From the NCBI GenBank assembly GCA_976226885.1, contig CDNGLT010000002.1, positions 1,426,001-1,490,000 on the forward strand: a DNA stretch of 64,000 bases, given 5' to 3'. The position numbers were made by a program, and so were the translations under genes. Source of the stretch: Iphione sp. A-MEVVRFRX5. Lineage: Eukaryota. The notes below the pieces were generated by a model, which was not told the DNA's origin, did no database searches, and saw nothing but the letters and a program-made list of their open reading frames with translations. Below, piece by piece: positions 1 through 28,951 of the stretch (the stretch's first letter is position 1; every line of letters begins with the position of its first letter).

Positions 1-941
1 AGCACATTCTCAGTGTACATGAATTGTGCAAGAGCATGCTCGTAGTAAAATGTGGGGTCTCCGACTAGAACTTTTTCTCTTCCCCGTATTTTCTTTTGGA
101 CGTTGTGGAGCCCTACTCTTACCTGGTTCGGTGAGACCAAGGATCCCGGAAGTTTGCCTACTATTAGATCTCTAATACCTGATGTAAATTTAAGATACTG
201 TTCCCTGAGATCATGCAGATGTATAATTTTTAAGGTGAGTATAGTAATGTATGATTGAAGGTGGTACTCAAGGTCGATGTCCTGAGATTGGTTTATTAAG
301 ATTTTCGTCAGCTGTTTGTTAACCTGTGCTACACAATGTACTGACTGTAGTATTGCGTCATTCTGATATTGAACCTGCTGTGTTAAAGTTTGGATGGCTA
401 TGTTGGTTGTATTTGCTAACATTGAGAGTTGAGTTCTAATAGCATGTAGTTGTTCTTGACCTACTTGTGCTGCCAGAACATCTACTCTATGTGAGACTTC
501 TCTAACATCATCCTCGGTGGCTGTGCCAATGAGGAATTTAGAGGCGTCACCAAAAAATCCGAACCATGCTCTTGGCTGTCTACCTACTTTTTGTGATACT
601 GGTGCCATCAGAAGTGAATTAAGTTGGTTTTCCTCATGTCTAACAGTGTGAAAAAGATCTTGATAATACATTTTCATATCCTTTATGAGAATTTCTAGGG
701 TACGGCAGGATGGTCGGCGAGTGCATGGGAGCTGATCCTGTCGTCCAAATGTCGACATTTTTCTTTGAAGGAACGGTGCTGGTCTAGGGATGACGAAGAG
801 TAGGTCAATGCTTCTTGCATTGGCAAGGAGTGGGGTGGGAACTTTCTCATATATGACTCCAAGGTTTTGCCGAAGGATATAATTTGTAGGGTGTGTACCA
901 GGGATGAAGAAAATGAGGAGCAGCAGGATGAGCCCTCCCAT
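1..941 (-). CDS. env: Envelope/fusion glycoprotein of element A, N-terminal part (runs off window), baculovirus-F/errantivirus-type
   Basis: Not in ORF track. Open frame from ATG 941 (MGGLILLLLIFFIPG, signal peptide) to base 1, containing RQPR|AWFGFFGDASKFLIGTATEDD (basic cleavage site plus fusion-peptide-like segment). Aligns with B env RRPR|AWFGFLGSASKALFGTATMDD and FYYEHAL. Confidence 0.85.
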   Translation of the reverse strand, partial: MGGLILLLLIFFIPGTHPTNYILRQNLGVIYEKVPTPLLANARSIDLLFVIPRPAPFLQRKMSTFGRQDQLPCTRRPSCRTLEILIKDMKMYYQDLFHTVRHEENQLNSLLMAPVSQKVGRQPRAWFGFFGDASKFLIGTATEDDVREVSHRVDVLAAQVGQEQLHAIRTQLSMLANTTNIAIQTLTQQVQYQNDAILQSVHCVAQVNKQLTKILINQSQDIDLEYHLQSYITILTLKIIHLHDLREQYLKFTSGIRDLIVGKLPGSLVSPNQVRVGLHNVQKKIRGREKVLVGDPTFYYEHALAQFMYTENV

Positions 942-1101
942 GCTGACCTGGAATGACATGGTTTAGTTCTTAGGTGAGAATCATGATTTGATCTATTTAT
1001 GTTTATAATACGTTTAAAAATTATATTAAGACCAGCCCTCCTGGGTGCTGGGGGAAAAGGTATTCTACCACTGAATAACAAGAAGAGTACAAGTGTTGTT
1101 T

Positions 1102-2924
1102 TTACTGCTTTATTATGTCATATTCCAGGCCGAGGAGTGTTCTTGCGAGGGCTTCCTCCATGGCCTGCTGCACTGCCCACAAGTTACGTAGGTGCCCGCC
1201 GTGGTGGTGTTGGGCACGTAGTGCGAGCACGCACAAATAGTTCCATGGTTTGTGGTCATCAGCTGGGATGGGTGGGTGGTACCCATTCTCCAAAAACTGG
1301 ACCAACCAGCCCCGGACACTCTCTGCTGTATTGGGCTGAGTCAGCCTTAGAGAAAGCGATGCGCTCACCCGGGCGGTAAGGTCCAATAGGGAGTCCATAA
1401 GGAGTGTGGGTGCATTGGACCAATTCTGAGGCATGTGGTGCTGCTGCGTGCCATCAGGTGCATGACCTGACCCGAACTGGATGTGGGGTTGGCGTCTGAG
1501 TGGCACACAGGGCTGGTTGTTACTGTGTTGTGTGAGACACCGCACACATATCTCGCGGCATTCTAATTCTTCTTGTAGATGGTTGAGGAAAGCCGCCTCT
1601 ACCTCTTCTGCCTTATAGGGGCGGTCGGGATAGTGCGAGTGGAAGATGCACACATGCTCCTTGCCACGCAGGACATCGAGTGCTGGCATATAATTTGTAA
1701 TTTCGTGACCTGGTTGCCACATGATGAGGGGGTGGGGGTTTTGATGGCGCGGTTGTGTGGGTGGGAGGAGAGGGGGAAGGTTATTTCTGGGGGTTCGACC
1801 AAGTCGCGGGATATTTTGGGTCCTGTTAAGGTGTTGGCGACTAGTATTGGGGATGCGGTAATTTTCTAGTGGTGGGAGTTCATCTTCAGAGGAGGGGGGG
1901 TTATCAGCCCTGTTCAGGGCCGCTGGTTGGTCTTCATCGGATTCTGATTCTAGGGGAGCGCGCCGGCGGCGCCTAGCGGGGGCTATAGACTCGTCATCTG
2001 AATCACTGGTGGGTGGTGGATAGCGGCGTTTAGGGAGGGTCGGTTGGTTGTCTGTGGCAGGGCTTCGAGGGCGGAGAGGAGTGTCAGCTCTAGGGCTGGT
2101 TGCATCCTCCTCCTGGGTGTCAGGGATCAGCAGGTGTCCAGTTGGAGCTGGTAGGGGTCCTGATGGATTTAGGGGGTTGGGCTGTTTGGGGGGTTTGCTT
2201 GGGGGGTGTCTTGTTGTTGGGTAGGGTTGATTAGGGATGTAAGGGGGTGGGCCAGAGTGACCAGTAGATTGTTCAGTGGTTGGGTAGTCGCCGTGGATTG
2301 GGGTGTGGGTTGCACTGCAGAAGCAAGAGGTTCACAGGGGAAGAAGGAGGATGGGTCAGTTTTAGAGGTGGAAGGCTGATGGGAGAGAGGGTGAGTGGTG
2401 GGGGTATTGAGAGGAGCCTCCGAAGGTAGGAAGGAGGATGGATCAGCTGTGGAGGTGGGGGGCTGGGGGGAGAGGGGGCGAGTGGTGGGGGCATTGAGAA
2501 GAGTTTCCGAGGGTAGGAAGGAGGATGGAGTAGCTGTTGATGTGCTCGGTTTAGGGGAGGGGGGACATGTTTGGACAGCAGGGATGGGCGGTTCTGAGGA
2601 AGGGGTGGAAGATGGGTCCGTGGTTGGCGTGCTTGGCTGAGGGGTGGTGGGTTGGGTGGGGGGTATAGAAGCAGGAGTTGTTGCCGGATCCGAGTTGGTG
2701 GGGTGACTTGTCACCCTTTCCATAAGCATTGCCATGTTGCGTATGAGGCCCACAAAAGCCGTGCCGGAGCTGGTGAAGGCATTTCTGACGGCCTTCTCAG
2801 CCTCGGCGAGGAGGGCTTCTGATACTCTGCGGCCGGCCATGACTGTAATGCTGTGCAGTGTGTCTGGAATGGTATGTAGTGTGTTTCTCATGAAAAGGTA
2901 TTTCAGTATAGTGCTTGTTGTCAT
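1102..2924 (-). pseudogene. Pre-env accessory gene of A: P/S/T-rich linker, RRRRR/acidic patch, CxxC-H-C motif, C-terminal accessory-family domain; one frameshift near 2170-2220
   Basis: The frame of ORF 1102-1722 is open upstream to at least 2220 (manual translation) and overlaps ORF 2169-2924. C-terminal half aligns with B 53845-54396 (W.YLC.LAL.AQ.HH.G.LR...A.QQA.EEA..RT..GLE.D). Confidence 0.75.
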
Positions 2925-3284
2925 TGTGACCTGAGGAGGGGTTTGCAGTGGTTGATCTTAATGGTCATAATGTAGTACACGTGCAGTTGTTATATGACTT
3001 TTTGTAAAAGAACATTCTGATTGATTCGAAATTCATTTATATTGATCTGTACAATTGTGATAAGATGTGAAGTGTACCAATATTATTGTTGCCTGACTAT
3101 TAGCAAAGTCGTCATGATAGGTTTGTACGTGGTAGGAGGAATAAAAATGGGTACTTAGAGGGTGAGGGTGTATTTTGTGCTGATTCTTAATGTCTAAAAG
3201 TCCTAGGGGTTCTTAGTGCATGAGGTGAGAGTGTGGGGGTTGTGCCTAGGAGTTGTAGATTACTTAATTGGTAAAATGATAAGT

Positions 3285-3815
3285 TCAGGGAAACGGAGTA
3301 AACAAATGAGAAGTTTTATTGGTCAAGTTAACAATAGCAAAAACTGCATTATGAGACTCCCAGCCCCTTAAGTGCTTCCTGATCATGGTACACCACCAAA
3401 TCGCATCCTCTACACTTTGCGGCATGAGCGGCACGTGGAGTCTTTGTAAAGCGACTACACAGATCACATCCCAAGTGGGGAAAAAGTGGCATGGGAGATC
3501 TGGCTTCACTCCCATGCGGAGATAATGGAGGATTTCTTGTTTCAGGGCTAGCCTGACTAGTTCATTGTTCAGATCAAAGAAATTGTTCTTCCAGGCCGGC
3601 AGCAGGTGGCCAATCTGACATCTCAAAAAGTTTGAGGCTACCATCTGGAAGAACCTCAGTCTGTCCTGTGGGCTGACAGAAGGGTGTCTTAATCCTGTGT
3701 TTTTTCTAAAGAGGTGTTTTACCACCAGACCCCAGTGACAATCGAAGGAGGAGGGCCTGTCCCCGGCATCCAGCTCGGACCCCCGGCTCCTAGTGGTGAA
3801 TCCGCTTGCAGCCAT
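3285..3815 (-). CDS. Accessory-family paralogue A5 (176 aa, intact)
   Basis: Motifs DC..LF..TGLRHP..R..FFDL..LVRL..Y..KPDLP..FFPTWD shared with other copies; acceptor ttttttcaattaaattcag 4 nt before ATG. Confidence 0.75.
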   Translation of the reverse strand: MAASGFTTRSRGSELDAGDRPSSFDCHWGLVVKHLFRKNTGLRHPSVSPQDRLRFFQMVASNFLRCQIGHLLPAWKNNFFDLNNELVRLALKQEILHYLRMGVKPDLPCHFFPTWDVICVVALQRLHVPLMPQSVEDAIWWCTMIRKHLRGWESHNAVFAIVNLTNKTSHLFTPFP

Positions 3816-4139
3816 ACTACTGAATTTAATTGAAAAAAGGATCTTAGGTGTACTGCTTTCATTAGGGAAGGGTTCTTAGAAGAGTGCCGACTTTAGTGGA
3901 AAAGGACCTAACAAGGTATCAAAATTTATGGTGGGGGGTGGGGGCATAACGAGGTACTATTTCTAATGAGAGGGATTTAAAAAGATACAGAGTGTAATGG
4001 GGAAAAGTATAAAGGTACATTCTGAAATGGGGAGGGTTTGCAAAAAGGGGCAGAATTTTGAGTGGGGGAGAGCATAAAAGGGAGTCCTTCAAGGAAAAGA
4101 TGTGGAAATTACGTAACTAAAAGGGGGAAGACATAGAAG

Positions 4140-4505
4140 GTAGCATTTTCAATGGGGGAATGTCAAAGGTAACATGTAGCATTTTCAATGGGGGAATGTC
4201 CAAGGTAACATGTTCAATAGGGAAAGATGTAAAAAGTACTACTTTCAATGGGGAGAGATGCAAAAAGTACCATTTCCAATGGGGAGAGATGCAAAAAAGG
4301 TACTACTTTTAATGCCCAAAGTACTATTTTCAATAGGGAAAGATGTAAAAAGTATTACTTTTAATGGGGAAAGATGCCAAAAGTACCATTTTCAATGGGG
4401 AAAGATGTAAAAAGTACTACTTTTAATGGAAAAATATGCCAAAAGTACCATTTTCAATGGGGAGAGATGTAAAAAGTACTACTTTTAATGGAAAAAGATA
4501 TTGAC
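4140..4505. repeat. Tandem array, ~31-bp unit with 62-bp dimer structure, containing AAAAGTA(C/CT)ACTTTT-type palindromes
   Basis: aagtac recurs at 4381, 4412, 4443, 4474; degenerates toward ~3940. Confidence 0.85.
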
Positions 4506-4919
4506 AAAAAGAGGGGGGGGGGTAACCAGGGGGGCTGCTGGGGGGGGAATGGGGAATATAGGGGTGTATCTTGAAGATATGATATTTGGTAGGGGTTACT
4601 CCTGTGTTCCTGGGATCATTGTCGGGGGGGGGGGGGGGGTTAAAAAGGAAGCAAAAAGGGAGGTATTCAATAATAACAACATTTCAGGCAAAAAGCCTTC
4701 AAAAAGGGGTATGGTGGAGGAACACTTACTAGTTTGTGTGTGGAGAAGAAGTCTGGGAGGTGAAGATGTGTGGATGTAAAAGGCTTGATATCCCTTTTTG
4801 ATATAGCTTGTCCTGCTTTTTTTTTCCTCTTTTGAGATAAAAGGGTGCTTGTTTGAAGATGTCAGATGTGGTGTCCAAGGTGTAGGCCTAGGTATCAAAA
4901 CCCAGGCATAATTGTCCGA

Positions 4920-5107
4920 AAATCCGGAAAACTCAGGTGAATTCGTCCGAAAAGCGTCAAAACTGAGGTAATTTTGTCCAAAAATCCAGTGAAACTGAGG
5001 TGTTTTGTGTGAATATTTGCGAAATTGAGGTAATTTTGATTGAGTTTTGACCAAACTGAGACATTTTTGTGTGAAATTTGGAAAAATTGAGGTAAATTTG
5101 TATGAGA
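4920..5107. repeat. Left half of ~31-bp tandem array split by the ISL2EU-like element
   Basis: aa(c/t)tgag(g) at 4961, 4993, 5023, 5054, 5085; ends ggtaaatttgtatgag, continuous with the array resuming at 9367. Confidence 0.8.
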
Positions 5108-5302
5108 ATGGACTCATCGCCACCTTTCCACGAAGCGTAATTAGTCAACCAATGATATGCCTGTATGCCGGCATTTGAAGCAGTAACCAATCATATTGTT
5201 GGGAATTGCGACATTTGTCTCAAATCGCGGACTCCGTTTATTTACATTCATTTTATGGAGATGTGAGTGTCTTTCACTGCTCTCTTTTGAAGAAATTATA
5301 AA

Positions 5303-5912
5303 ATGGTGAAAACTTGCCAGTATGTTGGCTGCCGGTCAAACGATCGTCACCGTGATCGGCATGGAGGGAAATTAATTTTTTCGCGTTTCCCTAAGCCTTG
5401 GCGTGATAGAGAGAGATGTCTCTGCTGGATTTTAGCATGTCGGCAGCCTGCCGATAAACTGAACATTGAAAAAATCAGATATCATCGATACATTTGTTCT
5501 AAGGTGGGTTTTTCTGTGTGTCTTTACATGATTTGTATAGATATATATTTTTTTTGTATGTCCTACTGTCATTTATATTCCCGTTTCCTTGTTAGTTAGA
5601 ATGTATAATGTATAGTATTGTGTCTCCCGATCCTTTGTTTTGTGCTTGTATGTGAAAGGTTTCTTAATCTAAACTTTCAACCTAAAGTTACAAATTCAAA
5701 ATATGGTTGGCAGTAAGCAGAATTTACGTTAAATTTCTTGCTCGCTGTGAACACGATAGCACTTCAGAGGTGGGTGTGGATCGACGGATCTTAATCCGGT
5801 CCCGATCGATGCAAGAACCTTATGTCATTGCGGTGGAGGTGACGGGCCAGCTGCTACGAAGAGGACTAATGAACTAGCTATGATTCGGTACAACTCTATG
5901 TATAGCATTTGA
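5303..5912 (+). CDS. Spliced THAP zinc-finger gene (exon 5303-5503, exon from 5760)
   Basis: CQYVGC...FSRFPKP...RCLCWILAC...ICSK|gtggg; intron ends ag at 5758-5759 and the next exon reads HFRGGCGSTDLNPVP, completing the THAP CSKHF...P motif in phase 0. 3' extent uncertain (possible donor 5888, stop 5910-5912). Confidence 0.8.
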
Positions 5913-8169
5913 TTGTATATTTCAACGTTACCTTTTCTTTAATGTTCTGTCCACTTTCTGTAAGTGCGTCGTAAAGCGTAAAGATTGGCACGATGCGAGT
6001 CCGCTGCGTTTGTTTCTTTTTTTTGGAGGGGGGGAACGAAATACTGTAGAGATTCAACTGTAATGTTTTCTTTTGTGCCTCGTCGACTACCTTCAAATCA
6101 ATGAGTGAGAATATTACTGGCAATGCATTAAATGAAATGCTATGTAAATAGGCTAATAAATTCGTGAACAGATGTCACTCTATGTCACATCTGGGAAGAA
6201 GTAGGTCAAGCCATGTTTTGCCGTGGTTGCACACATGTTGGTAAGTACGTTTTACAAGAGTTCATTTGGAATTCCTATCAGTATAGAAACAATAATGCAC
6301 TATCTTGCTTTAAATGTTACTCATATTTTATACCGGGGAAACAAATAATACCGATATACTCAAACTCTGTAATGTGCTCTTATTTCCAAAATGGCGTTCG
6401 AGATATTGGATCTACTTGGACGTACTTGTATGTTTTCTTGCTAGCATGAATGAAGTTATTTGCCTATGTTTGAATGATTACTTGGTGGAGTATTTGTTAA
6501 AAATGATTCATCAAATGACAGTACTATTTCTTTCGGTATAGGTTTTCATGATGCATTCTATCTTAAAAACGACAATATTCTCACACACTTGACTTGTTAA
6601 ACAGATAAACTTGAAGACCAGTAGAAACAGTTTTTAAGATCACAAGCATTTTTTTATTTAAATTTTTTTATTATTATTGTTGTCTCGTCAACAAAACTGA
6701 AGTTTTTCCACCGATGCAAAATTAAAAAGTATTTACGTTAAGACAATATGCATTTCTTTGCAAATAAAATCCCATGTACTAAGTGTACATGTTACAAAGC
6801 AACTTTGCACATTCTCGGTCTCCGGAAGATCTTGTGCATTCTCTCGAAATCAGTACAGATTACTGCAACGTGCTTAAACTATATGTGATAACTATCTCTA
6901 AAGAATGAGTCCTCTGTTCATTACGGATATCTGTTATGTCAGAATTCCTTCGCACTTGTCACAATAACTTCTTAGGTGACTGTGTAGACTGTAAATCAGA
7001 AAGACATAAGACTCATAAGCTTGACATGCTTGCATCTTTTAAAATTTACAACGAATATTTAGTCAAAGAAATTTTAGGATTCCAAAATGGTAATGAAATA
7101 TTTTTTTTTTGTTTAAATACTAACTTTCCGTCATGAAGTTATCAGCACATATTGCATTGTCGTTCTGAAGACATGGTCTTTGTTAAAATTTGACATTTGA
7201 CATTGTTATGCAGAAGTATCTCTTTCTTACATTATCTTGATTAAACAGCAATAAGCAAGCAAACATTTCCTTTTTTGTTCTTTTTTTTTATTACCTTGAT
7301 TTTTAATATTTTCTTCTTAGCCTCGATTAGTAACATTTAAAACTTAGCGGTACGTTGTAACATTAGAACAATGTAGTTGAAATGTCTTAAAAGTATAATT
7401 CAAAATCAGGAACGGTAAACTCAAACGAAATTAAGATAGTTGCAGTATTACAGATCCCCGACGAGGTTACTTTCCAGCAGCAGAACGCACTGTACAAATG
7501 CAATTACTTTTAGAACCAATGCGTTTCATTCTCAGAATAAAGGAGTCATTTGTAACATCAACCCCATGCTATACGAATATGTCATAATTAATTTGAATGT
7601 AACATAATTTAAATTTTGTGTAAGTGCATCAATTTTTGTTTGCTATGTCTCGCTCAATGCATAACATATTGTCATAATTTTAATCAACGAATGCATTCAT
7701 TTTTCCTTAGATATATATTTTGTTGGTTTTTTTACATTTAATTTATTTCAAACGATTCATTTGATTAAAACATAAATAAGCATAAATTTATGAAATTTTG
7801 TTCAACAAAATTAGTTATGAAACAGAAATCATAAGATGAACAATTGAATGAACAATATAAATTTGACATGTAAACATGATGCTGAATATAGCATTAAATT
7901 CGAAAATAACAATATATATGGAAACACACCGTCATGGAAGACAATCACTTGAAGTGGCGATTGAGATGGCAACATACAAATGGGGTGCCATTTCTGAAAC
8001 GTATTTGATTTGATATGGTTAGATACATACATTGTAATATGGAATCCAATGTAATACTGCTCCATAAGAAAATTGGAAAGCTTCAGACTATGACAGAACG
8101 CCTAACATTGAGTTAGGAATTGTAAATAAGGTTGACATTTTGTCAGACACTGAACAACATTTAGAATTA

Positions 8170-8320
8170 AGAAGGAGAGAGAAAGAACGAGAGGGAGAGA
8201 GGCATGGAAGGAGAGAGAGGGATGGAGGAAAAGAGAGATGGATGAAGGAGGGAGAGTGAGGAAATAAAATGAGAGGTGAAGGGAGGGAGAGAGACAGTGA
8301 GAGGGAGAGGAGGAGCAAGT
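8170..8320. repeat. GA-rich low-complexity tract
   Basis: Purine-only gaga/ggag runs; produces spurious Leu/Ser ORFs. Confidence 0.8.
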
Positions 8321-9366
8321 GTGACCACCCGGGATGATATAACAGGGGGAATCAATGAGTACTAGATAACTTTTCACAAAGAATTAACCCTATACAGGCG
8401 GAACCTGACGATACGTCATGGACTCACAGGGCAGGGTGAATTTTGATGTTTTCATATAGAGGGCGGCACACTATTGTTGTGTCAATTTTTTATTAACGGA
8501 TGTTTAGTTGTGTCAAAACCCTTCTAAATGTATACTTTTCAATTGTCTAAGGAGAATTGAAGATGCACATTTACTTATGAAGGTATTTAGAGCATAACTA
8601 TGGATTTATTTGGGAATATTGCTTTGAATTAGATATTAGATAGGTAATTCACTTCGTATGTCAGCAGTTTCCGGTCTAGACACAGGGAAATGTGAGTTTT
8701 CAAAGGAAAATGAAATGTTCTATTCAGAATTCATTATTTCTGTATATATCCGAATAAAGTATGACTCTTTTTGTATATTGTCTCCAAATCTCATCGAAAT
8801 CCATGCAGTATTTGTATGTTAATTCATTGTAGACGCACTAAAAGTTGACAAACCCCGTGTAGCGGCTGGTGCCAGACGTTTGATAAAATATATCCAGTGG
8901 GACATGATATACAGCCGGTCTCCTGTAAAGAATACCGATCATACTCAGGAGGAGTCCAGGAGTAGCTAGTAAAGCATTAACAAGAATTCATATATGAATA
9001 ACGAAGCAATTAAATGCATTTCTTGGATTTGGTGTGTTGATCCCCCCCGTGTACATCGGAACTCATGCCAGCTTGTTCGCCACTACTGCGTGTCTGTGTT
9101 ATCTTACAAACCCATCAAAAGAAAGCAATACAATTAACAATACAACAATAAAATCGTGCATGTAATGTTGCCTGCTACTTACTTACCAGAAAATTGATAC
9201 AGAATAAGGTAAATATGCACGGTCCACGAGGTTACAGACCACTTCACAGTTACAAATATGACCTGCTTGTCTTGTACATACCTCGCACATGTCAATTACG
9301 TCATTTAGCGCCAAAAATAGCGTCGCATTCTGATTGGCTAACCGATCGCAGTGGCGATCGGTCCAT

Positions 9367-9570
9367 TGGCAAAGTCTAGGGGTTTTTGACTGAGTTATGA
9401 CAATATCTGGGTAAATTTGTATGAAATTTGGCAAAAGCTTATGGGTTTTGTGTGAGTTATGACAGAATCTGGGTAAATTTGTACGAAATTTGGCAAAAGT
9501 TTATGGGTTTTGTGTGAGTTATGACAGAATCTGGGTAAATTTGTATGAAATTTGGCAAAAGTTTTTGTCT
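9367..9570. repeat. Right half of split array; 62-bp unit (two 31-bp halves), ~3 copies
   Basis: gaaatttggcaaaag at 9423, 9485, 9547. Confidence 0.85.
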
Positions 9571-9594
9571 GTGGATATATATATATATTTTTGG

Positions 9595-9973
9595 GGTGTG
9601 CCAGTAACTGTGTCACCATGACAAGGGTGTCCCATGCAGGCAGGAAGCGTGTCAGGAGGTTTGGCTCCCTATGGGTGTGAAAATAGTTCACAACCAGTTG
9701 TATCACCCCCAGTTGTACGAGGGTGCAGTTTAGGTTAAAGAACCGCCCCTCCTGCCAAGTGGGCAGGATGACTCCCATGTGAGTGTCAGTTACTCGTGCT
9801 AATCTGTCTAACATCCAGAATCTTTCCGAGGGGGTGACGTTAGGGTGCCAGATCCCTGTTTTCTGGCCAAATAATACACTAACAAGGGCGGGATCACAAT
9901 CCGCAAGGGTTGGCTTGTCTCTGTGCAGAATGGATTGGGCCCTCCTTGTGGCTCTGGCGTAATGCCCCATCAT
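9595..9973 (-). pseudogene. Accessory-family paralogue A4, C-terminally truncated
   Basis: DCDP..LFGQKTGIWHP..FFNL..LVQL..Y..REPNL..FLPAWDTL; homology stops at ~9597 where the frame runs into the tandem array. Closest to A3. Confidence 0.8.
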
Positions 9974-10348
9974 GACCTAGAGTAAGAGTGATTAGAAAAT
10001 AACAACTCCTTGCTTAGGGAATTCTGGGTGTGGAGGGTGGATGGGTGGAGAGTGGCGTGAAGACCAGCGCGGTCATGAGGTGTGCACGTTCTAAACCAAA
10101 ACATTATATGGGAGTGGGTGCATGAGACTAGGTGGAGGGGGTTGGCAGAGGGTCAGAGCACCTAGGGGTTTCTACGTCAGTTTTTGATAACACTTAGGGT
10201 TGGCCTGTTTGAGGTGTTGTGTGAATCCTGGGTAGATTTTTGGCGAAACTCAGTATAGACATTAACTGTTGGTAGATTTGTGGTTTGTGAATAATTTTAT
10301 TGTTATTTCTCTAGAATGTCAGTTATTTGTTGATGTAATGTCAAGTAT

Positions 10349-10885
10349 TTAATCCCAGATTTCTAGATCTGGTGGTGTGATGGGTCTACCCACCATTAGG
10401 AGGTCAGTCTGTAGTGGTGTGGACGTGTAGCAGTGCACGTATGCATGTACTGCCTGTCTGGCCGCCTCTCTGTGGGGGTCTAGGTTGTAAGGGCCGATTG
10501 GCCAGCGCTGAAAGTGGTTCAACACGACCATCACAAGGGCATCCCAGCTGGGCAGAAAATGTTCCGGTAGGTTCGGCTCTCTTCGTGTCTGGCAGTAGGT
10601 TACTAACAGCTGAACCAGGCTTATCTGCACAAGGGGGGAGTCCAGATTGAAGAATTGGCTTCCCTGGTAGCCAGAGAAGACAACTCCCATGTAGGTATCT
10701 GTTGTGAAGGCCAGCCTGTTCAGCATAAGGAATCGTTCCAGGGGTGTGATGTCAGGGTGGTGGAGCCCTGTTTTCTGTCCAAAGAGTGCCTTGATGAGGA
10801 CCGGTTCGCAGTCCACAAGGCCCGGTCTACTGCCCTGTAGGATAGCTTGGGCTCTCATGGTGGTTCTTACGTAGTGACCAGTCAT
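10349..10885 (-). CDS. Accessory-family paralogue A3 (intact)
   Basis: DCEP..LFGQKTGLHHP..FFNLDSPLVQI..Y..REPNLP..FLPSWDAL..REAA..IWD*. Start placed at 10885 (MTGHYVRT matches A4 MMGHYARA; acceptor AG 10890-10889). AATAAA at 10301-10296. Confidence 0.8.
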   Translation of the reverse strand: MTGHYVRTTMRAQAILQGSRPGLVDCEPVLIKALFGQKTGLHHPDITPLERFLMLNRLAFTTDTYMGVVFSGYQGSQFFNLDSPLVQISLVQLLVTYCQTRREPNLPEHFLPSWDALVMVVLNHFQRWPIGPYNLDPHREAARQAVHAYVHCYTSTPLQTDLLMVGRPITPPDLEIWD

Positions 10886-11039
10886 ATTCTGAAGTAGATA
10901 TTTGAGAGTCATATCAAACTTCTGTGGGAGGTGTCTAAGGTCTAGAGGAATGATGGGTGGGGGGGTGGCTTGGGAGTTGAGGATGGGATTTCAGGGAATC
11001 TTGTTGCCTTCGTTATTGGTATATGCTGAGGGTTCCTCC

Positions 11040-11594
11040 CTAAGGGATGTTTGTGGTCGTATCCCACTCATCGTCATCGTAGGTGGGTGTTGGGGGGTAC
11101 AGGCCCGCGTCTAAGAGGTCGTGGTTAACCATGTGTACAGATGAAGTTTTTTGCATATATGTGCACTACCCTTTTACTGCAGCCTCCTGCACGTGATCTA
11201 TGGCCTGTGACAGTCGGGATTTCATCCGCAAGGCTCTGAAGGCCTCTACAGCTAACTGGTCCCATACTGGACAGAGGTGTGCTGGGAGCAGTGGTTCTTG
11301 GGCAGTCCTGAGGTAACGGGCGAGGACCTGTACGATAGAAAGCTGCACCAAGGGTGAGCCTAGGTTTAGGAGTGTTCATTCCCAGGGGAGAACAACTGTC
11401 CCAAGGGAGTCAATACGGCTCGCAAGGTGCTGCAGTAGCTCGTAGCGCCGAAGGGGTGTGACCCTAGGATGACGTAGGCCCTTGTCAGGCTGGTAGAGAC
11501 CCAGGGTCAGGCGTGATATGCAGTCCTTGATCTCAGGTATTGCTCCGTCTTGAAGTTCCCCAAGTCGGGCGGATACTTCCTCATAAGTATTCAT
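11040..11594 (-). pseudogene. Accessory-family paralogue A2, 185 codons with two in-frame stops
   Basis: Single frame: DCIS..GLRHPRVTP..PWE*TLLNL..LVQL..EPLLP..PVWDQL..EAAVKG*..YDDDEWDT; stops at 11376 and 11166. Confidence 0.8.
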
Positions 11595-13278
11595 TTCTGC
11601 GGAGGAAGGGTAGAGATCTTACATCTGGTGTGGTGGATGAGAGTTTAGAGGCAGCTATTCGTGGGTGGGGGTTAATTGGTTGCCACCTAAGTTCTCTCTC
11701 TGAGGAGTTTCAGGGATGGGGGGGTCGTTTTATCTCTTGATATTACTGGTAGGTTTAAGGTCATAAGGAAGCTTTTTGGTGTGGGTTTTTGGGGTCATTA
11801 GTGGCCAGTGTTAACCCAGGGATCGAGGTTGTTTAGATGAGGTCATTTGTTTACATGATAACAGCTGTGGTCTGGTGAAAGCGTTTTGGAGGAAAATACG
11901 TGGCTGGAATGCACGCGTGTCTTTGGCCGCGGGTGATTGAGTTGATCATTTGAGAGGGTGCAACAAGAGAGGGCAGTCCAGCAAGGTCACAAAGGAGAAA
12001 AAGGATTATAGACAAAGGATCGAGTTGTTGGGAATTAGTGACTGCCATGATGGCAGCATTGGTGTTTGGAATGCGTAGACACGTAATCAGGGAGGATGTT
12101 CCTTTGGAGGGTAAGTTTACTTTTTCCACCCAGGTAACTTTCTCTAAGAAGGAGGTGAGGATGAGGGGCCTTGCTACTCTCTGTCAGGCCGATGGGTAGA
12201 GGGAGGTGGGGTGGGGGCTGCCACTTTACTTTGGTGATAGTTGTTATTAATGCTGCTTTGCTAATTCATCCCCTATTACAATTTGCAGAAGTTGTGGTGA
12301 TCCTGAATGCTGGGAGCAGGATTCATAGGTGGCACGTAGGCAGCGAGGTGCCAGATAGGACAGACCGAGAGGTCGACTGATCTCTGGGCCGTATCGGATG
12401 CATGTGATCCCGGTGGTTTTGTATTAGCCTAGTTTTGTGACGCCTTCTCAATATTAATAGTGTGTTTTATGGGTATAAATACTTTTCTTGTAAATCTGTG
12501 TCCCCCTTTTTTTTTGTGTTCGAGTTGCCACTATGAAAGATGAATTATTCAAAGATCGTATTGCTGAGGTTCTATAATTTTCTTCCTTAAGATGTGTACC
12601 GTTCATATAAAGTCAAGAGTCTTCTTGATGCTAATAGTTTATTACCATAAGGCCCATTAATAACTCTTCTACATTTGACTATAGTATGATTTGGGTTATT
12701 TAAATGTCTATGTAGAGGAATATCGGATCCCATCACCATAAATAATATTAATAAGTGTTATACGTCGAGTATTTTGATAATACACATAGGATTGTATATA
12801 TGTTGATAATATTGCCAAAGAGAGTAGCCATGTTCATAATTCTACAGTGTCCCTCAGTCTCGCATTGCTGGCGCAGAGACATTTGACATCACTATCAGAG
12901 GAGCCTCACTGTCTTGACTCCGACGAAGTGGCTACCCTCTGGAAGAAGGGCTGTAGTGGTAAGTGTTGCCCCATCTTGTGGTGGGGTGTTCACGTCCGGT
13001 CACAGATGGTGGCCAGGTGTTTCTTTTCGCACGGAGTGACTCCCGATTGACATAGTGAGTCCTTTCACTATTACTAATTCTACAGTCACTACAATGTTTT
13101 CTTGGGAGGTCTTGTTGTCCAGGGGCATTTCAGATTTGTCAGTGAGAGTTCATTCAGAACTCTGCGCTATGTGGAGATTCGAATTCCCATTCCTGTTCCA
13201 CGGGGAGGGGTAGGATGGGGCGGTTGCTTTTGATGGCGTCAGTTGATGAGAACTCGGCGGCCAGAGAGTCGACTGCTA

Positions 13279-14205
13279 CTAGGGATGGGGTGCTTGCATC
13301 TGATGACATCGGTTGATGGGGGTTTGGCGGCCAGAGAGCTGGGGGCTAGTCGGGTGGGGCTCCAGTATGTTGTTCCAGTGCGATGGGTGGGCTTGCGTTT
13401 CTTGTGCCACCTCAGAGCGTGAGAGCGACGATGGGGGGTCTGGTGAAACCCAATTTCTTGGGGGACAGTGTTGCGGCGCTTGAGTGATGAGGATCGGTCT
13501 GAGCAGGGACTGGATTCTCCCCGGGGACCGGGTTGTTGGGGCGGCCCGTGGATGGGTAGGCCTGGCGGGGCGGGGTGTGGTATCCCGGGAGGATGAGACA
13601 TCCCTCTGGGGTGAGCCATCCCCGCGGGGTGAAGTATCCCATCGGGGCGAGATATTCCCATGAGATGGGGTATCTTGGCGGTGTGGGTAGTGCATCTTGG
13701 GATGTCGGTACAGGTTGGCTGTCAAAATGTCCATGCGTGCAGGTATATGGGAGGTCCTCTTCATGTATTTCCTGAGGGCCCTCACGGCTGCTTCTCTGGC
13801 CTGACTCGTGGCCAGAGAGAGCCCAACAGTAGATCGAAACTCTGCAAGGGCCACGGTAACAAGACTGTCCCAGGCGGGGTAGTACTTGGGCAGTATGGGA
13901 GGTGTCTGATGGTCCTTGAAGTAGGCCATGAGCATGTCGACCACCGTAAGCTGGGCAATTGGGTATTCTAGGTCCTAAAAGTTGCCTTTCCGAGGATGAA
14001 GCACTGTGCCCACTGCTTCTATGGTGTAGGAAAGGTGCCACATGAGCTCGTGTCGATACCCATCTGTGACTCTGGGATGGCGGAGCCCTCTGTCGGATTT
14101 GAAGAGCTCGGGGGTAAAGGCCGGGATGCAGTCTCCTGGGCTCGGCAGCGCCCCCTGGAGAAGGAGTGACTGCCGCTCTTGGATTTTCACATACCGGCCC
14201 GCCAT
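13279..14205 (-). pseudogene. Accessory-family paralogue A1 with C-terminal (S/T)PR-repeat tail; internal stop at 13975
   Basis: GDCIP..LF..GLRHPRVT..NF*DLEYP.AQL..Y..PPILP.YYPAWDSL..REAA, then ISPRWDTSPRGDGSPQRD..TTPR. Confidence 0.8.
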
Positions 14206-14829
14206 AACCTGCGAATGTTGAGGTAAAGAGAGATGTGAGAGATCTCTTCAACTATTCGTAGGATTTTGAGAAGGGCCTTGCTAAAAAGGATAGCGAAGGG
14301 TACATGTTTTGCTAATCCCAGGCTCTCATGGGTGGGGTTTCTTGTGCTGCCCAGTATTTCTATTGGGGGTTTCATATATCTAGGAGGGTCAAGCCACCAA
14401 GATGAAGTACCCAAGTGGGCGGGGGGCCCCTACAAAGGGGGTGCCTTTTTGGGGAAGGGTGAGCTACTAACTCTATGGGCGAGGTGAAAACAGACTGTTT
14501 TGTAGAGGGCAAGACGGGTCCCAGATGGCGGCCCCTTATTTTGAAGCCCTTTCAGAAGGCCTAGAAATTGTTTTGGGGATCTTTATGGTGAGTGTTTGTG
14601 TTGATTGCAGGTGTGAGGTTGGATACTGCAAATGACCCTGGGGGTCTGTGTGTTAGCCTCCTGTTGACTCCTCATTCAGGGCAGAGGTAGCTAATCTCTG
14701 CTACTGTTTTTGAGTCATGTACCTTTTTCGCTTGGAGGTAGGGGAACAACCAGAGTTGAGAAAAGGCAAATTACTAGGCACTGTATTATGTGGGTTGGCT
14801 TCTTTCTGGTAGCCTCCTTTTTCCAATTT

Positions 14830-15682: not shown

Positions 15683-18600
15683 TCAGATTAACCTCTGGGA
15701 ACCTACTGGGGGTTGCTTGATGGTATTGGATTCTGAAGAGGTTGGATTAGGCTCGATGGTGATCTTAGTATCTTTTGGAGTGTCATCTTGGTTGGCTGGT
15801 TCTATTAGGATCTTGTCTGGGTTGGGAGGTAAGTTGAGGCGCCCCAGTCTTACAACAGGGTCAAGTTCACTTAGCCCCACCTCTATCTGACATGGGCGTC
15901 GGGGGGCAATAGGGAGATGAACTTTTATTTTCAGGGGGTGCTCGGATCTTAGCTGCTGATGTGGGTCATCCCCTACTTTATCAGAGACTGCATCTTGAGC
16001 TTTGCTTAGTGAACGTGTCACGGGTCCCTCTGTTCGTGTCATGGGGACTTCTGGTATAACAGGCATGGAGAACTCTGAGGGGGCCTCAGATTTCTCTTCA
16101 GAGAGGGCAGGGGACTCACTAGAAGACTCGGAGTCTGAGAGTGGGGGAGAAGTGGGAGAATTGGACCGAGATGGAGCTGGGGGGTCGGAGTCTTCACTTG
16201 ATACATCTTGGGTTATTGGACAATTTGCATTGTGGAATGATCTTACAATAGGATGGGGGCGTTCATGTAAATTTTGTGAGGTAGAGGGAGTCTCAAGGGG
16301 AGGATCCTCATTCTGAACAGGGGATGAGACATTTTGCGAGGGTTCTTCTGTGATGGTGCTCATAAAGGGTGCTAGGGCTTTCAGAAGCCATTGTCGTCGT
16401 GGGGGAAGGGACTTGGGCTCATCAGAGGAGTGAGTCTTTTCAAAGCTGTCAGGGGGGAGGTCTTCAGGTGATATGTCATCTTCAGGAAATTCCTCGTTGG
16501 TGCTAGGGATAGCAGATATAGTTTTCTTTAGCCGGCTGATAGTGACTGGTCTGGCAAGATGCCTCTTGGTTGAAGGCATTTCAAGAAGACAGTGGAGTCA
16601 GTCTGAAATCGGGTAATTGCATAAGGTCCATGGTAGACCTTGGCAAGTTTAAGTTTGAGCGAGCTATCCTTTAATTTAGGCATGTATACCCATACTACAT
16701 CACCTACCTGGAGATCTAGCTTATAGGTGTGCTCATCGTGTATTGCCTTCATGGCTAGGGCATATCTTTCAGAGGTCTTTTGTGCAGCTTGATGAGCTTC
16801 TTGTTGAGCCTGCAAATGGTTTCCAAATCTCTGTCGGGTGTCCATTAATTCATCTTCTGAGATGGGAATGGAGTTCATTTTGGGGCGGCGGGGTTCATAC
16901 CCATTTAGGAGGAGATAGGGGGTTTGGCCTGTGCGGGTGGCCTTTGTGGTGTTTAAAGCGAAGCATATTCCAGGAAGGTAACAGTCCCAGTTGTTTTGAT
17001 CTTTGCTAACATAATTTCGTAAGACTGTCAGAAGCGAGCGGTTGGCCCGCTCAACCAAGCCTGAGGTCTGGGGATGACCTGCCGTAGCAAATTTCTGTTT
17101 GATTCCATTTTTCCTACAGTAATTCATATACCTATCTGAAATGAAGGCTGAGCCATTATCTGAGACTATAGTATTGACTACACCAAAACGGTAAACAATA
17201 GGTTCTTTAAATTTAGAAATAAGGGTGTATGCTCGGAGATCAACTTGTGCCCATGCTACTAGGAATCAGCTATGATAGTCTACTATAGTAATGATATGTC
17301 GGTTTCCTCTTTTTTTGAGGGGGAGTCTTTCTATGGCGTCCATATTAATGGTATGCCATGGTGCTGGCGTTGGATCTCTTAAGGTCAGAGGAGGTCTTAT
17401 AGGACGTGTCATACGTTTGGTTTCGGAGCATTTGATACAAGTGGCGCAGTACTCATGCACATCCTTGCTCATTCCAGACCAAAAGAGTGACTCCCTCATT
17501 CTGGTAAGCATTTTTACTGGGCCCAAGTGTCCTGCGTGTGGAGGGTCATGTTTCTGTTGGAGAAATTGTTCCCTAAGTCCCATGGGGACAACAAGTCTGA
17601 CATTCATTCTAGCATTAGGTCCAGTGGTTGATAACATCTTAAAGAGAAGCCTTTTGTAAAGAAAATAGTCCTCTTCATGGAGCAGAATCTCACGTGCCAA
17701 TTTGTCATCCATAGGGAGTATCCCATATTTGATGAAGCCAACTGTTTGTTGACAGAAGGTATCATCTTTCTGCTCCTTAAAGAGATCTTCAATGGGTATG
17801 TGTGATGAGTTTAGATGTTTCTCTGCCCCAGAATGGACGACAAATTGTCTTTCCCTTCTCTTACGGTGCTTAGGTTTGTTAAGGAATTGGGGAGTGCCTG
17901 ACTTGCCAGTGGTATAAATAGCATTTGCTTCTACAGGTCTGAGAGTTTTATCTCTGGGCTTCCTGCCAGTAGGAACATAGGGAGGTTCTTTGTCAGGAGG
18001 GGTGTCAAGGCGAGAGAGGGCATCAGGGACATAATTGGAGATCCCTGCTACATGTTGGACAGTATAATCAAACCGTTGGAGGAATTCCATCCATCGGATA
18101 ACTCGGCTCTCCTTGTGCTCTAAGGATTTTGTAACCAAGATATGAACGAGAGGGTTATGGTCAGTTCGGATGGTGAACTTGGCTCTTTCTAAATAAACTC
18201 GCCAGTGCTTGACTGCATAAAAGACAGCGGCCATTTCCTTGTCTGTTGTAGAGTAATTGAGCTGGGCTCCTTGAAAGGCTTTAGCCCAGTAAGCTATTGG
18301 TCTAAGACTTCCTTCCCAGTCTTTTTGTGACAGGCTGGCGCCCATTCCATAGTTACTGTAGGTCAGTGGCCAAAAAGAATTCATCATTAAAGTTTGGGTA
18401 AAGAAGAAACTGTTCATTGGTCAGAGCTTCCTTAAGTGTTTGGTATGCCCCCTCTTGTTCAGGCCCCCAAAAGAATTGGGCACTCTTTCTTGTTAAGTCA
18501 TAGAGGGGTTTAGCTTTAAGGCCATAGCTGGGGATAAATTTTTTATAATAGCCAGTCATTCCTAAGAATCGGAGTACCTGTCGGACTGTGGTTGGAGTTT

Positions 18601-18872
18601 TCATTTCTTTTATTTTCTGCGTATTGTCAGGAGAGGGCATAATGCCTTCAGTGGTTATAATATGACCTAAGAACTTGACTTCTGACCGTCCGATCTCACA
18701 TTTAGAGGGCTTGAGTTTAAGTCCTGCCTCGATTAGTCGGTCCAAGACTTCTCTAAGGTCCTGCATATGTTGCTAAAATGTGGGTGAAAAGATTACTATA
18801 TCATCCATATACGCCAAACAGATCTTATAGTTTAATCCTGACAGAACTAAATCCACTACACTTTGAAAGGAT
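15683..18872 (-). pseudogene. pol: pol of A, 3' part: RT (YMDD), RNase H, integrase, Ser/Pro-rich extension
   Basis: SFQSVVDLVLSGLNYKICLAYMDD at the junction with C; RNase H YGMGASL..PIAYW..EMAAV..TDHNPL; HDPPHAGH..CIKC; SDNG..GLVERAN; YHGPYAI. Several stops and frameshifts. Confidence 0.93.
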
Positions 18873-19444
18873 TGTAGCACAAAAGCAAACACCACTAGTC
18901 AGGTTCGAGTCAGCCTTTATTCTTCTTCAGCAGTGATACAGCAACCGTCATCATCAACAGCAACTGAGGCAAGTCCGAATAACTCTTCGGACTGCCAAAC
19001 ATATATACCCAACTGGACCGGACACGGTTGTTTATTACAAGTCGTTCTCACAATGGGTCGTTAAAGTTTTACACGCTTGACGTCATTGACACTTTCGTCC
19101 AGGGTCGTGCTCAGGCACCGGATACAACCCTTATCTTGTTATGGCGCCGTGACACCGTGTGAACTAAGTAGACTTTTAATGGTTTGGATTCCAATTACTT
19201 TCACAGCCGATAGGAAGAATTGCGAAGCGCACAAAAGATGTCACAAACAAATTTTTCACTCAGTACTTATAGTTACTTCGCATAAGGCTTTTACTTGTAT
19301 TCTGTATATCTGTACACTATACATACGTTGCAATGTTCCATACTCATGCTGTACGATTAGCCATATACAACGTTTTATTTCCCAATACATCTATAAGGCA
19401 GAGTCTTGTCTTGATACGGTACCATATAACACCACTGTGTTACA
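18873..19444 (-). repeat. 3' LTR of element C (572 bp)
   Basis: Direct repeat of 30039-30607; about 24 substitutions and one 3-bp indel by eye. Confidence 0.96.
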
Positions 19445-19455
19445 CCCCTCCCCTT
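19445..19455 (-). other. Polypurine tract of element C
   Basis: AAGGGGAGGGG immediately upstream of the 3' LTR on the minus strand. Confidence 0.85.
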
Positions 19456-20568
19456 GTGGGGAGACAATGGGCAGCATTGTCAGCCTATCTGTAGACCAGC
19501 AAAACAAAATCCTTATATACTTTTGGTTTGTCTAGCCTACTACCTGACTTCTCACAGCAGATGTACCATATGCCAAGTTCAACAGGAACAACATACCTGC
19601 CATCCTACCACAACTGGTACTACCAGGGGATGGACGTCTTGGCCTCGTCCAACTTCAAGTCTTACACAGAGACAATAAGTAATGATCCTTTGATTACCCT
19701 CACTAAAGATGGAAGTAAAGGTGATAATCAAACGGACAACATGCCTCACCTTCAAGAAAAGGAGTTGCATAAGAAGTTGTATCAATCTCTTTTCATATCA
19801 AGACTCACCACTTTCCTTTGAGTTGCCCAAGAACCATTTCCCGGAGTTAACTTTACATCACCCATTCGGATCAGTTCTTTTAGGAGCTTAAGACCCAGAA
19901 CACGAGGCCACTGTGCCTCAAGGACTTGAGTGGTCGTACTACTACCACGTCCCATCTTCCCTTATCTGCAGAGACTACAGTTGAAGCCAAAAAAAATAAT
20001 TCTGAACCCCAAAACTGACCCCCTGAGATGCGGTGAAGAAGAAGGAATTTGAGGAAGGAAGAGAAGGAACGGCAGAGCCCTGGCCTATCACTACCATACT
20101 AACCAAGAGTGGCCAACGCCCTGCCAAGTTTCGTGAGGTGCCATTCCAAGCAAACACCACTGCTGCTTACGAATGACATCTCACAGCCCATGGGCCACCA
20201 CGAGGAAGACACTTCCGAAACAAATATTTACATCTGAAGTGCCCACGGCAACTCAAGGCTTACAGAACCGCATCTCAGATTTTTATTCTATGCTCCCTTT
20301 CAGCCGATCCGAATATTATATACACAATCACGAGGTATATACAGTCAATACCCTATTTCCGAACTTATTTGATAATACATGATTACAGATACACAACATT
20401 AAAGACATTACATGATAATACGAACATGTACATTTACCGTTATAATTCCTTGGCCATACTTTATTTGAATACATCACTTGAACATTACTCATGAGTAAAT
20501 ACCCATTACAGTTTTGAGCAAGAGTTTCTGTCTCTTCTGCCAAACCTGCAATATCTACAGCTTCCTTT

Positions 20569-22688
20569 TTAGCGGAACACAGAGAAGGGATGTTCATTAG
20601 GGGCATACAATTCAGTGTTGGTTCGTACGTTAGTGGGGCGATAGATCTCAAATTCTTTTGGACCTTGCTTAAATTTCATCGCACATTCAGGTATAATGCA
20701 GGCCAGGCTGGGAGCACTAGGAGAGGGCAAGGCACGCAAAGAGAGGGTTTCTCCGGTACTGGCCATTGATGAGTTAGGGGAACCCGTACCACCTCCCATG
20801 TTAATGGTTATAGGGGACGATCCCTGGGATTCCACATCTGACGTAGGTCTAAACCCACCCATCCCTCTCGCAGGCATTAGCCTCCTCCATCGTCCCTTGC
20901 TGCAGAAGCAACAATAAAAACAGCCACATAAGGTTAAGGCGGAACTCAACCCTCCACAGTTGACAATGGTGACGTTCCTGGCATTTCGGGCAACCTTATC
21001 ATGCAAAGTATTGATTCGCTGCACAATTCCTTCAATATCAGTTTCGGAAAAATCCAGTAGAGGTTCTAATGACCCCGTACGGTTCATTGCAGGAGGGATC
21101 TCCGGTGACCAGACTAACAATTCCGTAACTAACAGTTTGGCGGGGAGCTCTATGGGATCGCGTTCCACCTCATCCTCATTTCGTTGGTAATAGTATGTAG
21201 GTAACGGCATCCTATCTCCCACGGCTCCACATCCGTTAGGCAGTCTCACTAATGCAAACGGGGCTGGAACATTATGACGATCGTGCTACCGTTAACACAT
21301 TGAATACGCATTGGTAATGTGACAGGTGTGGTCACAACCCAATTTCCTTGATCCAAATATTTTGCTTGGGGCATCGTAAGTCCGGTTAGGATACTACGAG
21401 TACACAATGTCCATACTCTTTTTACTTCTTGTCGATAAATGGCAAGTACACAGTAGGAGTGAAGATTGAGTTTGTATACGGGAGACGACACTAAACACGA
21501 GTCTTCCTGCAATCGACAATGAACTAATTCTTCGGGAGTCACTATGGCATAGTGTCGACGATCGCTGGTGATCCCGAAATATTTGAATTCCAGGTCAAAC
21601 TTAATAGTTTTCCCGTCAGTCATAGGTACTGGAATATTGACAGCTTCATAGATAGTATAAGAAGCAATAGGATCAACTAAAGGGATCATAATGGACGTTA
21701 TGATCCGTTCTTCGAATATTACAGTTGTGACCGGGAGTGCACTATTGTAACTCCACACATCTTCAGCAAAATACGGCAGATGCAATTGAGTGGGTAATTG
21801 TCTTTCGATGGTAAAGAGAATAGCTTGCAACTCGGTGGCGGGAAGCACTTCTAGTGTTAATCGCCCTCCTAATAGATGATCAATTCGTGCCTCCAACCGG
21901 GCTATTTCATAGCGTGAATAGAATCGTTCAGCATTCAAAATCTCTAGTGGTAACATTACTAACCATGTGCACAGCTTCCCATAAGTCAATTTCCACGACC
22001 TTCAATGTTTTTAACACATCGTTAATATGCTGACGGTTTCGTCGAGCATCTACTCGTGTTTGATTGATTACTGTCATCATGTCCTTCATGATGGTCAAAG
22101 TCTCCAGTTGCTGCATTTCCGACTGGTTAACGCATTGTTTAATCACATGAATTTCATTTCCAACCACTCCAAATCCAGTAGCAGTTCCCGCAACCAACAC
22201 GATGCCTCCTATGGCAGCCAATAACACTGCCGGACTGCGCGCGGCCGAGTGCGATTATATTTTCCAAATATATCCACTCATTCTACCCGTTCTTCCTGGA
22301 ATCGTCTAGCCTGTTCTTCCGTTCTTAATCGCAACGTTGTTCAATCGAGTAATTCCCTGCGTGATTCGAGCCTGCAGAATTTCAGCTCAATCCAACTGTG
22401 AACCCATAATTCGACCCGCGACTGGCTCTGCCCGGGGTCGATTTCCATAGATCTGCCATGGTGGAATGAGACTGTACGTTGTCTTCAGCAGGCCATGCCT
22501 GGTTCGATTCAATTCCACGGACAGTTCATTTCCCAACTGTTTGTAACGATCATATTCAGTGATCAGATCCAGTCACCATGAGGAGAGGACAGACATCACG
22601 TCTAAACGCTTCTTGAAGATCACGTTTTCTAATGTCCCTCCTTCAACCAGACGGATAAAGGTCAGTCCGACCAACACCCACACGCAGC
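20569..22688 (-). pseudogene. env: env of element C, class-I-fusion-like, broken into several frames
   Basis: Acceptor tctttttctctgttgcag then CVWVLVGLTFIRLVEG; RTRPR followed (across a 1-nt shift) by AVLLAAIGGIVLVAGTATGFGVV; Cys-rich ectodomain; hydrophobic/Cys segment LSSALTLCGCFYCCFC. Confidence 0.75.
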
Positions 22689-26841: not shown

Positions 26842-26918
26842 TTGGAGCAGGATTTGAACCTGGGTACTTGCAACTTCCATCGTAAGGCTGGCACTCCTAT
26901 CCACTGCTCCACAGAGGC
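26842..26918 (-). ncRNA. tRNA-derived Pol III-like unit (SINE-head-like) inside the MITE
   Basis: A-box-like TGGAGCAGTGG, B-box GGTTCAAATCC, downstream T-run; acceptor stem does not pair. Confidence 0.55.
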
Positions 26919-26927
26919 TGTACAAAG

Positions 26928-28931: not shown

Positions 28932-28951
28932 GTGGGACCTTTATTTTAACC

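Follow-up and report, generated by a model that had tools for sequence, protein, structure and literature searches.

Introduction

In the complex retroviruses of vertebrates (lenti-, delta-, epsilon- and spumaviruses), extra genes are expressed through alternative splicing of a transcript driven by the long terminal repeat (LTR) (PMC3185809). Among invertebrate gypsy-class elements, Cer1/CERV of C. elegans produces a non-structural protein from a spliced mRNA, described as one multi-exon protein with a proven role in export (PMC10309623). Errantiviruses with an F-type env (Chary & Hayashi, PMC13524379; Drosophila iERVs, PMC12992720) carry LTR, primer-binding site, gag, pol and env in that order and the pol domain order PR-RT-RH-IN, and the idefix subclade of Drosophila iERVs splices env from a donor within gag (PMC12992720). 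Oikopleura Tor3a likewise splices env from a donor near the gag start; env is the only gene concerned, and in other Tor clades it has an internal promoter (PMC4402516). Burro and Ogre exceed 20 kb and have extra coding capacity, Burro as additional domains in one polyprotein and Ogre as one or two extra open reading frames (ORFs), its size being largely due to long LTRs; the available text describes no multi-acceptor array in either (PMC6431247). Here we describe a clade of giant, env-bearing Ty3/gypsy elements in Iphione sp. A-MEVVRFRX5, beginning with element A, which occupies the minus strand of a 64,000-nucleotide stretch of contig CDNGLT010000002.1 (positions 1,426,001 to 1,490,000; hereafter the window).

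Element A is an LTR element that runs from window position 38863 to approximately 3 kb beyond the window's left end, and interrupts the gag of a related element, B, where a 4-bp target duplication flanks it. The clade has the gene and domain order of errantiviruses and the gag-internal donor of idefix and Tor3a. It differs from errantiviruses in its length (17-26 kb in the sister families), in a gap between pol and env of several kb (up to ~16), in the 1-5 paralogs of an accessory gene and the proline-rich (Pro-rich) ORF, and in having several acceptors. With complex retroviruses it shares the expression of extra genes by alternative splicing, and differs from them in its Ty3-like Pol and in accessory genes that are tandem paralogs of one family with no match in the databases searched. 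Its array of single-exon cassettes also sets it apart from CERV as described. A survey of metazoan env elements admitted pol-env gaps of at most 1 kb and total lengths of at most 10 kb, and would therefore miss the elements of this clade; the available survey text contains no occurrence of "splic" or "accessory" (PMC13524379). In the open-access literature, we found no report of a multi-acceptor accessory array in an invertebrate gypsy element.

A Conserved Gag Donor and Integrated Copies of Spliced RNAs

Our principal finding is that the clade very probably splices in cis from one gag donor to alternative acceptors ahead of downstream starts, as recorded in sister families for env and for one accessory gene, and that the sites in A likely belong to the same system. 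An initial annotation of the window had proposed a single leader alternatively spliced to each gene, and both the conserved donor and exact joins to env and accessory acceptors in sister families bear this out. The splice sites and cassettes of A are as follows.

37933..37938, minus strand: major 5' splice donor CA/GTAAGT (donor at 37938), phase 0, in gag, 51 nt before the capsid ATG at 37887; GTAAGT in 91 of 93 copies
13279..14210, minus strand: acceptor AG 14210-14209 and accessory paralog 1, ATG 14205; broken near 13975
11040..11598 (lower end approximate), minus strand: acceptor AG 11598-11597 and accessory paralog 2, ATG 11594; internal stops
10349..10890, minus strand: acceptor AG 10890-10889 and accessory paralog 3, ATG 10885; open, 178 aa, followed by AATAAA at 10301
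9585..9978, minus strand: acceptor AG 9978-9977 and accessory paralog 4, ATG 9973; 3' part lost in the window copy
3285..3821, minus strand: tandem acceptor AG 3821-3820 or 3818-3817 and accessory paralog 5, ATG 3815; 176 aa
1102..2844, minus strand: acceptor AG 2844-2843 and long Pro-rich ORF, ATG 2840; fragmented in the window copy
1..949, minus strand: acceptor AG 949-948 and env (class I F-type by its match), ATG 941; continues past the left window end and is broken there

The host genome (1.18 Gb) contains 1065 exact matches to the clade's primer site, a lower bound given that variant sites exist. Among the first 100 listed, 93 continue into capsid. GTAAGT stands exactly 51 nt before the capsid ATG in 89 of these 93, is slightly shifted in two and has a one-base variant in two, and the donor codons are kept across families while adjacent codons diverge. 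Other candidates were set aside: a GG/GTA at the end of the primer site is explained by that site and is poor at +4/+5, GT[AG]AG-like sequences in U5 are not conserved in position and are missing from some clusters, and a 50-nt mini-intron from the donor to an AG ahead of the capsid ATG has an AG whose position is not conserved in the A clade.

In two sister families, the donor is found joined to a site downstream of it in eight genomic copies: to the env acceptor in five, to an accessory acceptor in two and to an AG in gag in one. One of them, L159, is among the 100 surveyed copies, and its donor exon end runs directly into env, with both sides exact against its parent, L143. We searched for such junctions as the end of exon 1 followed by any base except G. 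The first family yielded nine matches: five at the env acceptor, one at an accessory acceptor, one at the AG inside gag, one point change (GT>AT) and one unrelated locus, so that seven of the nine fit a parent AG exactly. The second family gave one match, joined 2 nt ahead of the orthologous accessory ATG; its nearest parent is only 80-88% identical, and the join is consistent with use of the acceptor. A looser 14-nt junction pattern returned 1496 matches and was uninformative.

All seven joined copies of the first family retain LTR, primer site and exon 1. Four of them (L159, L175, L176 and L177) have two LTRs each, 99.1-99.8% identical, and L177 is flanked by a perfect 4-bp target duplication. 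A tree that includes 26 unspliced copies requires at least six origins for the seven, and the five env joins, which stem from several of these origins, all reach one acceptor ~19.4 kb distant. In L175, exactly 9.3 kb from donor to acceptor is missing and the rest is kept through the 3' LTR. Spliced retroelement RNA can persist as DNA when the donor lies downstream of the primer site; because the gag donor does so, spliced RNAs of this clade can be retained as DNA. Judged by their structure, the joined copies are reverse-transcribed spliced RNAs. At the env acceptor of L175 (L175full), 7 nt of the exon-1 end are inserted, which suggests template switching or recombination with a co-packaged env-spliced RNA. 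As a separate observation, the primer site carries insertions of 2-3 nt in five of the seven spliced copies (L172, L173, L175, L176 and L178).

The initial annotation had also offered a second possibility, an operon resolved by spliced-leader (SL) trans-splicing together with internal polyadenylation. The acceptors do lie very near the ATGs, and in several families an AATAAA precedes the env start by ~170-230 nt. The joins, however, are in cis and keep the element's own LTR, primer site and gag exon; having come from reverse-transcribed spliced RNAs, they therefore need no trans-splicing, and a host SL RNA was not searched for. Further, the host mitochondrial code is the invertebrate one (table 5), which rules out flatworms, echinoderms and tunicates, and the host COX1 is presumably annelid-like, judging by a sequence motif. 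Annelids are reported to lack SL trans-splicing (PMC7854359), which bears on this host through that presumed likeness. We consider such an operon very improbable.

Alternatively, each cassette might have its own internal promoter, with the acceptors serving short local leaders or being incidental. The env of Oikopleura Tor3b/4b has such a promoter (PMC4402516), kilobase spacers could hold others, and integrated copies record only RNAs with the primer site, leaving internally started RNAs invisible. Against this, the gag donor is found joined exactly to the acceptors of env and of an accessory gene, and we regard independent promoters as quite unlikely, though a mixed system may exist.

Acceptor Sites before the Downstream Starts

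The seven AG/ATG contexts listed by the initial annotation are all present in the window where it placed them, and its observation of an AG 2-6 nt upstream of each start holds in that YAG (Y, pyrimidine) occurs there at 7/7 starts, against a background of 46 among the 237 remaining ATGs of A on the minus strand (19%). One of the starts is off by 84 nt. The ATG given for it, at 2924, is not conserved, being AAG in copies C11a and C15a, and the conserved start of the Pro-rich ORF is at 2840, with its own YAG 2 nt upstream in A and 5-8 nt upstream in C2a and C13.

We scored acceptor strength with a matrix trained on 28 acceptors from distant element families only, and thus not on host genes. Among the 844 AGs on A's strand, the sites before 14205, 11594, 10885, 9973 and 3815 ranked 7, 19, 11, 4 and 2, respectively. 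The five accessory sites thus fall in the top 2.3%, while those before 2924 (rank 77, 9%) and env at 941 (rank 119, 14%) score only moderately. The pattern extends beyond A. We took 74 distinct homologous accessory starts, chosen blind to AG as the in-frame ATG nearest profile column 1; three more contexts without an in-frame ATG were excluded. YAG lies 2-3 nt upstream in 67 of the 74 (91%) versus 287 of 4158 sense ATGs in ten elements (6.9%), and 2-6 nt upstream in 69 of the 74 versus 17.5% of that background, where the 74 starts represent ~11 paralog clades and so are not 74 independent events. Env starts maintain a YAG 5-9 nt upstream across families.

Could the AG/ATG pattern have arisen by chance in a pyrimidine-rich strand, with the joined copies being ordinary deletions? 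Almost a fifth of the other ATGs in A have a YAG at this distance, and ordinary deletions do occur. The excess over background at homologous starts, and seven joins exact on both sides, most of them ending at a single distant acceptor from several origins, nevertheless make this hardly credible.

Several results weigh against cis-splicing across the clade. Scores at env and 2924 are only moderate, as noted, and no clear acceptor adjoins the first ATG of element B's Pro-rich ORF. The junction search found no spliced copy in A's own small subfamily (11 matches, nine followed by G and two with a 6-nt insertion before an intact donor) or in B's subfamily (12 of 12 followed by G), and gave 0 matches in a single-paralog family. 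Because A's subfamily has no spliced copy, the use of A's seven sites is inferred from homology. Joins extend to a single accessory ortholog and never to the Pro-rich ORF. Ordinary deletions unrelated to splicing affect L237 and L271 among the 100 surveyed copies, of which four more are truncated, decayed or interrupted. Finally, one join leads to an AG inside gag without a gene start, and some capture is therefore cryptic splicing.

Exon 1 and the Choice of Start Codon

The leader proposed initially is a single shared front exon, as predicted, but it is not purely non-coding, for it holds the first gag AUG. The base at -3 of this AUG is T in 93/93 copies, compared to A at the capsid AUG in 90/90 and a purine at 67 of 74 accessory AUGs. 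Exon 1 contains 0.57 AUGs per kb versus 22.7 per kb in the adjacent capsid region (88 copies, 72 of them without any); these copies are related to each other, and the pattern holds across 14 representatives, with 8 AUGs observed against 22.9 expected and 0/200 shuffles as low, a mis-set start in one representative having added three to the observed count. Together, the weak first AUG and the nearly AUG-free exon suggest leaky scanning. A small upstream ORF of 10-15 aa, at +35 to +37 of the primer site in several families, overlaps the first gag AUG.

We propose that the 5' LTR promoter would give rise to a separate, singly spliced mRNA for each accessory paralog, for the Pro-rich ORF and for env. 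Ribosomes would pass over the weak first gag AUG, continue scanning exon 1 and initiate at the first strong AUG they reach, that of capsid in unspliced RNA and that of the accessory gene or env in spliced RNA. Duplication would copy acceptor and ORF as a unit, making new paralogs expressible. In-frame acceptors could also yield proteins fused to the Gag N-terminus.

Such fusions could instead be the main products of the same splicing, an Arg/Ser/Pro-rich peptide from exon 1 being read in frame with the accessory domains or Env. The donor is in phase 0, many acceptors precede the ATG by 3, 6 or 9 nt and are thus in frame, and the Gag N-terminus is an open, conserved reading frame; CERV of C. 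elegans is, in the available description, partly built of gag-frame exons (PMC10309623). By contrast, entire paralog clades have the acceptor at 2 nt, and some env and Pro-rich starts have it at 5 or 8 nt, all out of frame. Within the paralog-2 clade the spacing shifted from 2 to 3 nt, while the ATG and the purine at -3 were kept. The join in L175 is also out of frame with gag, whose frame stops five codons after it, and the protein therefore needs its own AUG. Fusions as the main products seem improbable to us, and initiation at the cassettes' own AUGs remains our preferred account.

The Accessory Family and the Pro-rich ORF

Of the seven starts first noted, five (14205, 11594, 10885, 9973 and 3815) open paralogs of one helical family of ~170 aa, the others being those of the Pro-rich ORF and env. 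The C-terminal part of the Pro-rich ORF is itself a diverged copy of the accessory domain. Arrays contain 1-5 paralogs across the clade, and in a genome search for the family all 150 scored candidates, out of 4467, matched. Paralog 5 is not present in copies C11 and C15.

The accessory domain was modeled with confidence as a helical structure (pLDDT 83.5). The family has no match in Pfam at E<0.001, no homologs among 36 candidates of 97-312 aa (longer and shorter forms were not searched) and, as a 38-sequence profile, no match among 1.84 billion representatives. For the model, Foldseek returned nothing at E<=0.001 from PDB and BFVD, and the best Z from VIA was only 4.0. The best ESM Atlas score of 0.86, to lyase clusters, came with low recognition and was treated as noise. 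By sequence and predicted structure, then, the family is without match in the databases searched, which does not establish a new fold. The most plausible guess, which we hold to be rather doubtful, is that its proteins would control how unspliced RNA is exported or would oppose silencing by the host. Two elements (L143el, 13396-14838; C19b, 14706-15284) have an extra spacer ORF with an N-terminal zinc-finger-like pattern, which we presume to be C2H2-like.

Polyadenylation Signals and a Hairpin before Env

The following features lie between pol and env in A.

12638..12643, minus strand: AATAAA in the spacer after paralog 1
1109..1114, minus strand: AATAAA at the stop of the Pro-rich ORF; same boundary in 10 of 11 elements
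1036..1077, minus strand: conserved 5-bp hairpin (1061-1077) and purine tract, like the module before the 3' LTR

The initial annotation had located four AATAAA signals (12643, 10301, 3320 and 1114), each of which is there; two more, absent from it, lie between env and pol at 15929 and 15470, and the one at 3320 falls inside the ORF of paralog 5. In a span from -10 to +200 of the stop, AATAAA follows the Pro-rich ORF in 10/11 elements versus 1.6 expected, and accessory ORFs in 13/34 versus 5.6 expected, one of the 34 really being a Pro-rich ORF. The signal before env is the sole one that is consistently conserved, the others being patchy. Spliced copy L175 reads through to the 3' LTR, and integrated copies cannot record RNAs that ended internally. 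On this conservation we lean slightly toward internal polyadenylation at the site before env, and give the remaining AATAAA sites a smaller chance. Internal poly(A) sites, most likely that before env, would shorten a subset of the accessory mRNAs. The alternative polyadenylation proposed by the initial annotation, in which such sites would define mRNA families as in the adenovirus major-late unit, thus finds partial backing in the sequence.

In the env-bearing families examined, L147 excepted, the interval from the internal AATAAA to env holds a hairpin, whose loop is of the AGTGGYA type, together with a purine tract. The hairpin stem pairs in 75/75 cells of alignment A3, and two of the five pairs covary, along one clade split. 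This module is likely an internal polypurine tract that would provide an origin of plus-strand synthesis.

Classification of the Clade

Pfam matches in an intact relative and in pieces from the window give the pol domain order PR-RT-RH-IN. In a PDB search, the reverse transcriptase was closer to Ty3 (E 3.5e-124) than to retroviruses (foamy virus, 2.7e-35; HIV, about 1e-13). LTRs, primer site, polypurine tract and short target duplication are all present in the clade, the 4-bp duplication being perfect in 4/6 copies with both flanks read. As assigned by their domains, the elements are Ty3/gypsy (Metaviridae), with a Pol that is not of retroviral type. The env of the intact relative matches PF12259 (Baculo_F) at E 2.3e-10, above the cut-off, and the top Foldseek matches of an env model of low confidence (pLDDT 47) are all paramyxovirus or pneumovirus F proteins (best E 9e-9). 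From these matches, env is predicted to be of the class I F type.

As in errantiviruses, env is spliced, in the form of an exact donor-env join in five integrated copies of a sister family, a record in DNA and not RNA. The compact three-ORF errantivirus layout is absent, with accessory paralogs and the Pro-rich ORF separating pol from env. As in complex retroviruses, accessory genes derive from alternatively spliced RNAs, as indicated by joins to an accessory acceptor in two families. A clade with an env frame of ~907 aa is concentrated at contig ends (for example C4:8321, C2:16832, C23:6704, C11:4510, C1:179.4 Mb and C2:134.9 Mb), which suggests targeting near telomeres.

State of the Window Copy and Its Neighbors

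Natural copies of A with fewer interruptions are ~23 kb long, and several copies in the clade combine LTR pairs 99.6-100% identical with long open ORFs. The clade contains young copies, with LTR pairs 99-100% identical. The window copy, in turn, has lost U5, the primer site and the first gag AUG, is interrupted by three insertions and has stops in most ORFs; it is likely inactive. Its remaining parts are as follows.

38040..38863 (lower end approximate), minus strand: 5' LTR remnant of A with U3 repeats
32650..37887, minus strand: gag capsid/nucleocapsid, interrupted by a LINE-like insertion at ~33456-37700
15683..32600, minus strand: pol (PR-RT-RH-IN), broken; interrupted by a nested env-bearing LTR element at 18873-30607
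5110..9365, no strand given: 4.25 kb insertion, not present in copies C11 and C15

The element nested in pol (18873-30607, minus strand) is of a different env-bearing type, with a Baculo_F match, and has a polypyrimidine-AG directly ahead of its env-like region. Element B, on the plus strand, repeats the acceptor pattern of A ahead of two paralogs and of env (window positions 39141, 46450, 47169 and 54650). The donor of B reads GTAAAT in the window copy, and the nesting of A inside B puts B's primer site ~3.2 kb beyond the window's left end. At C5:1636001-1682700, ~221 kb away, a 99% duplicate of the entire window neighborhood, insertions included, would be either a segmental duplication or an assembly duplicate.

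Implications

The architecture is, as read from the genome, real and conserved, with its donor identified and its junctions recorded in DNA, and it amounts to complex-retrovirus-like expression in a Ty3/gypsy element. A multi-acceptor accessory program is a hallmark of the complex retroviruses of vertebrates, and here it appears in an invertebrate Ty3/gypsy clade, with splice junctions that can be read from DNA alone. The search for an exon end not followed by G can be reused to map splicing in retroelements when RNA data are lacking. Surveys that stop at 10 kb may be missing a class of enveloped elements.

More speculatively, the clade might represent an invertebrate complex retrovirus-like lineage independent of Retroviridae, with one donor and an AUG relay, in which splicing would replace a weak first AUG, followed by an exon free of AUGs, with a strong one. 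Such a lineage would also have an expandable array of a new fold, polyadenylate internally ahead of env, start plus strands from a second origin and use one paralog or more as a Rev-like or anti-silencing regulator; we put this forward as a tentative possibility. The clade provides a system for asking how export works for an unspliced RNA of 17-26 kb that carries a strong donor and many acceptors, and how an accessory family that duplicates acts against its host.

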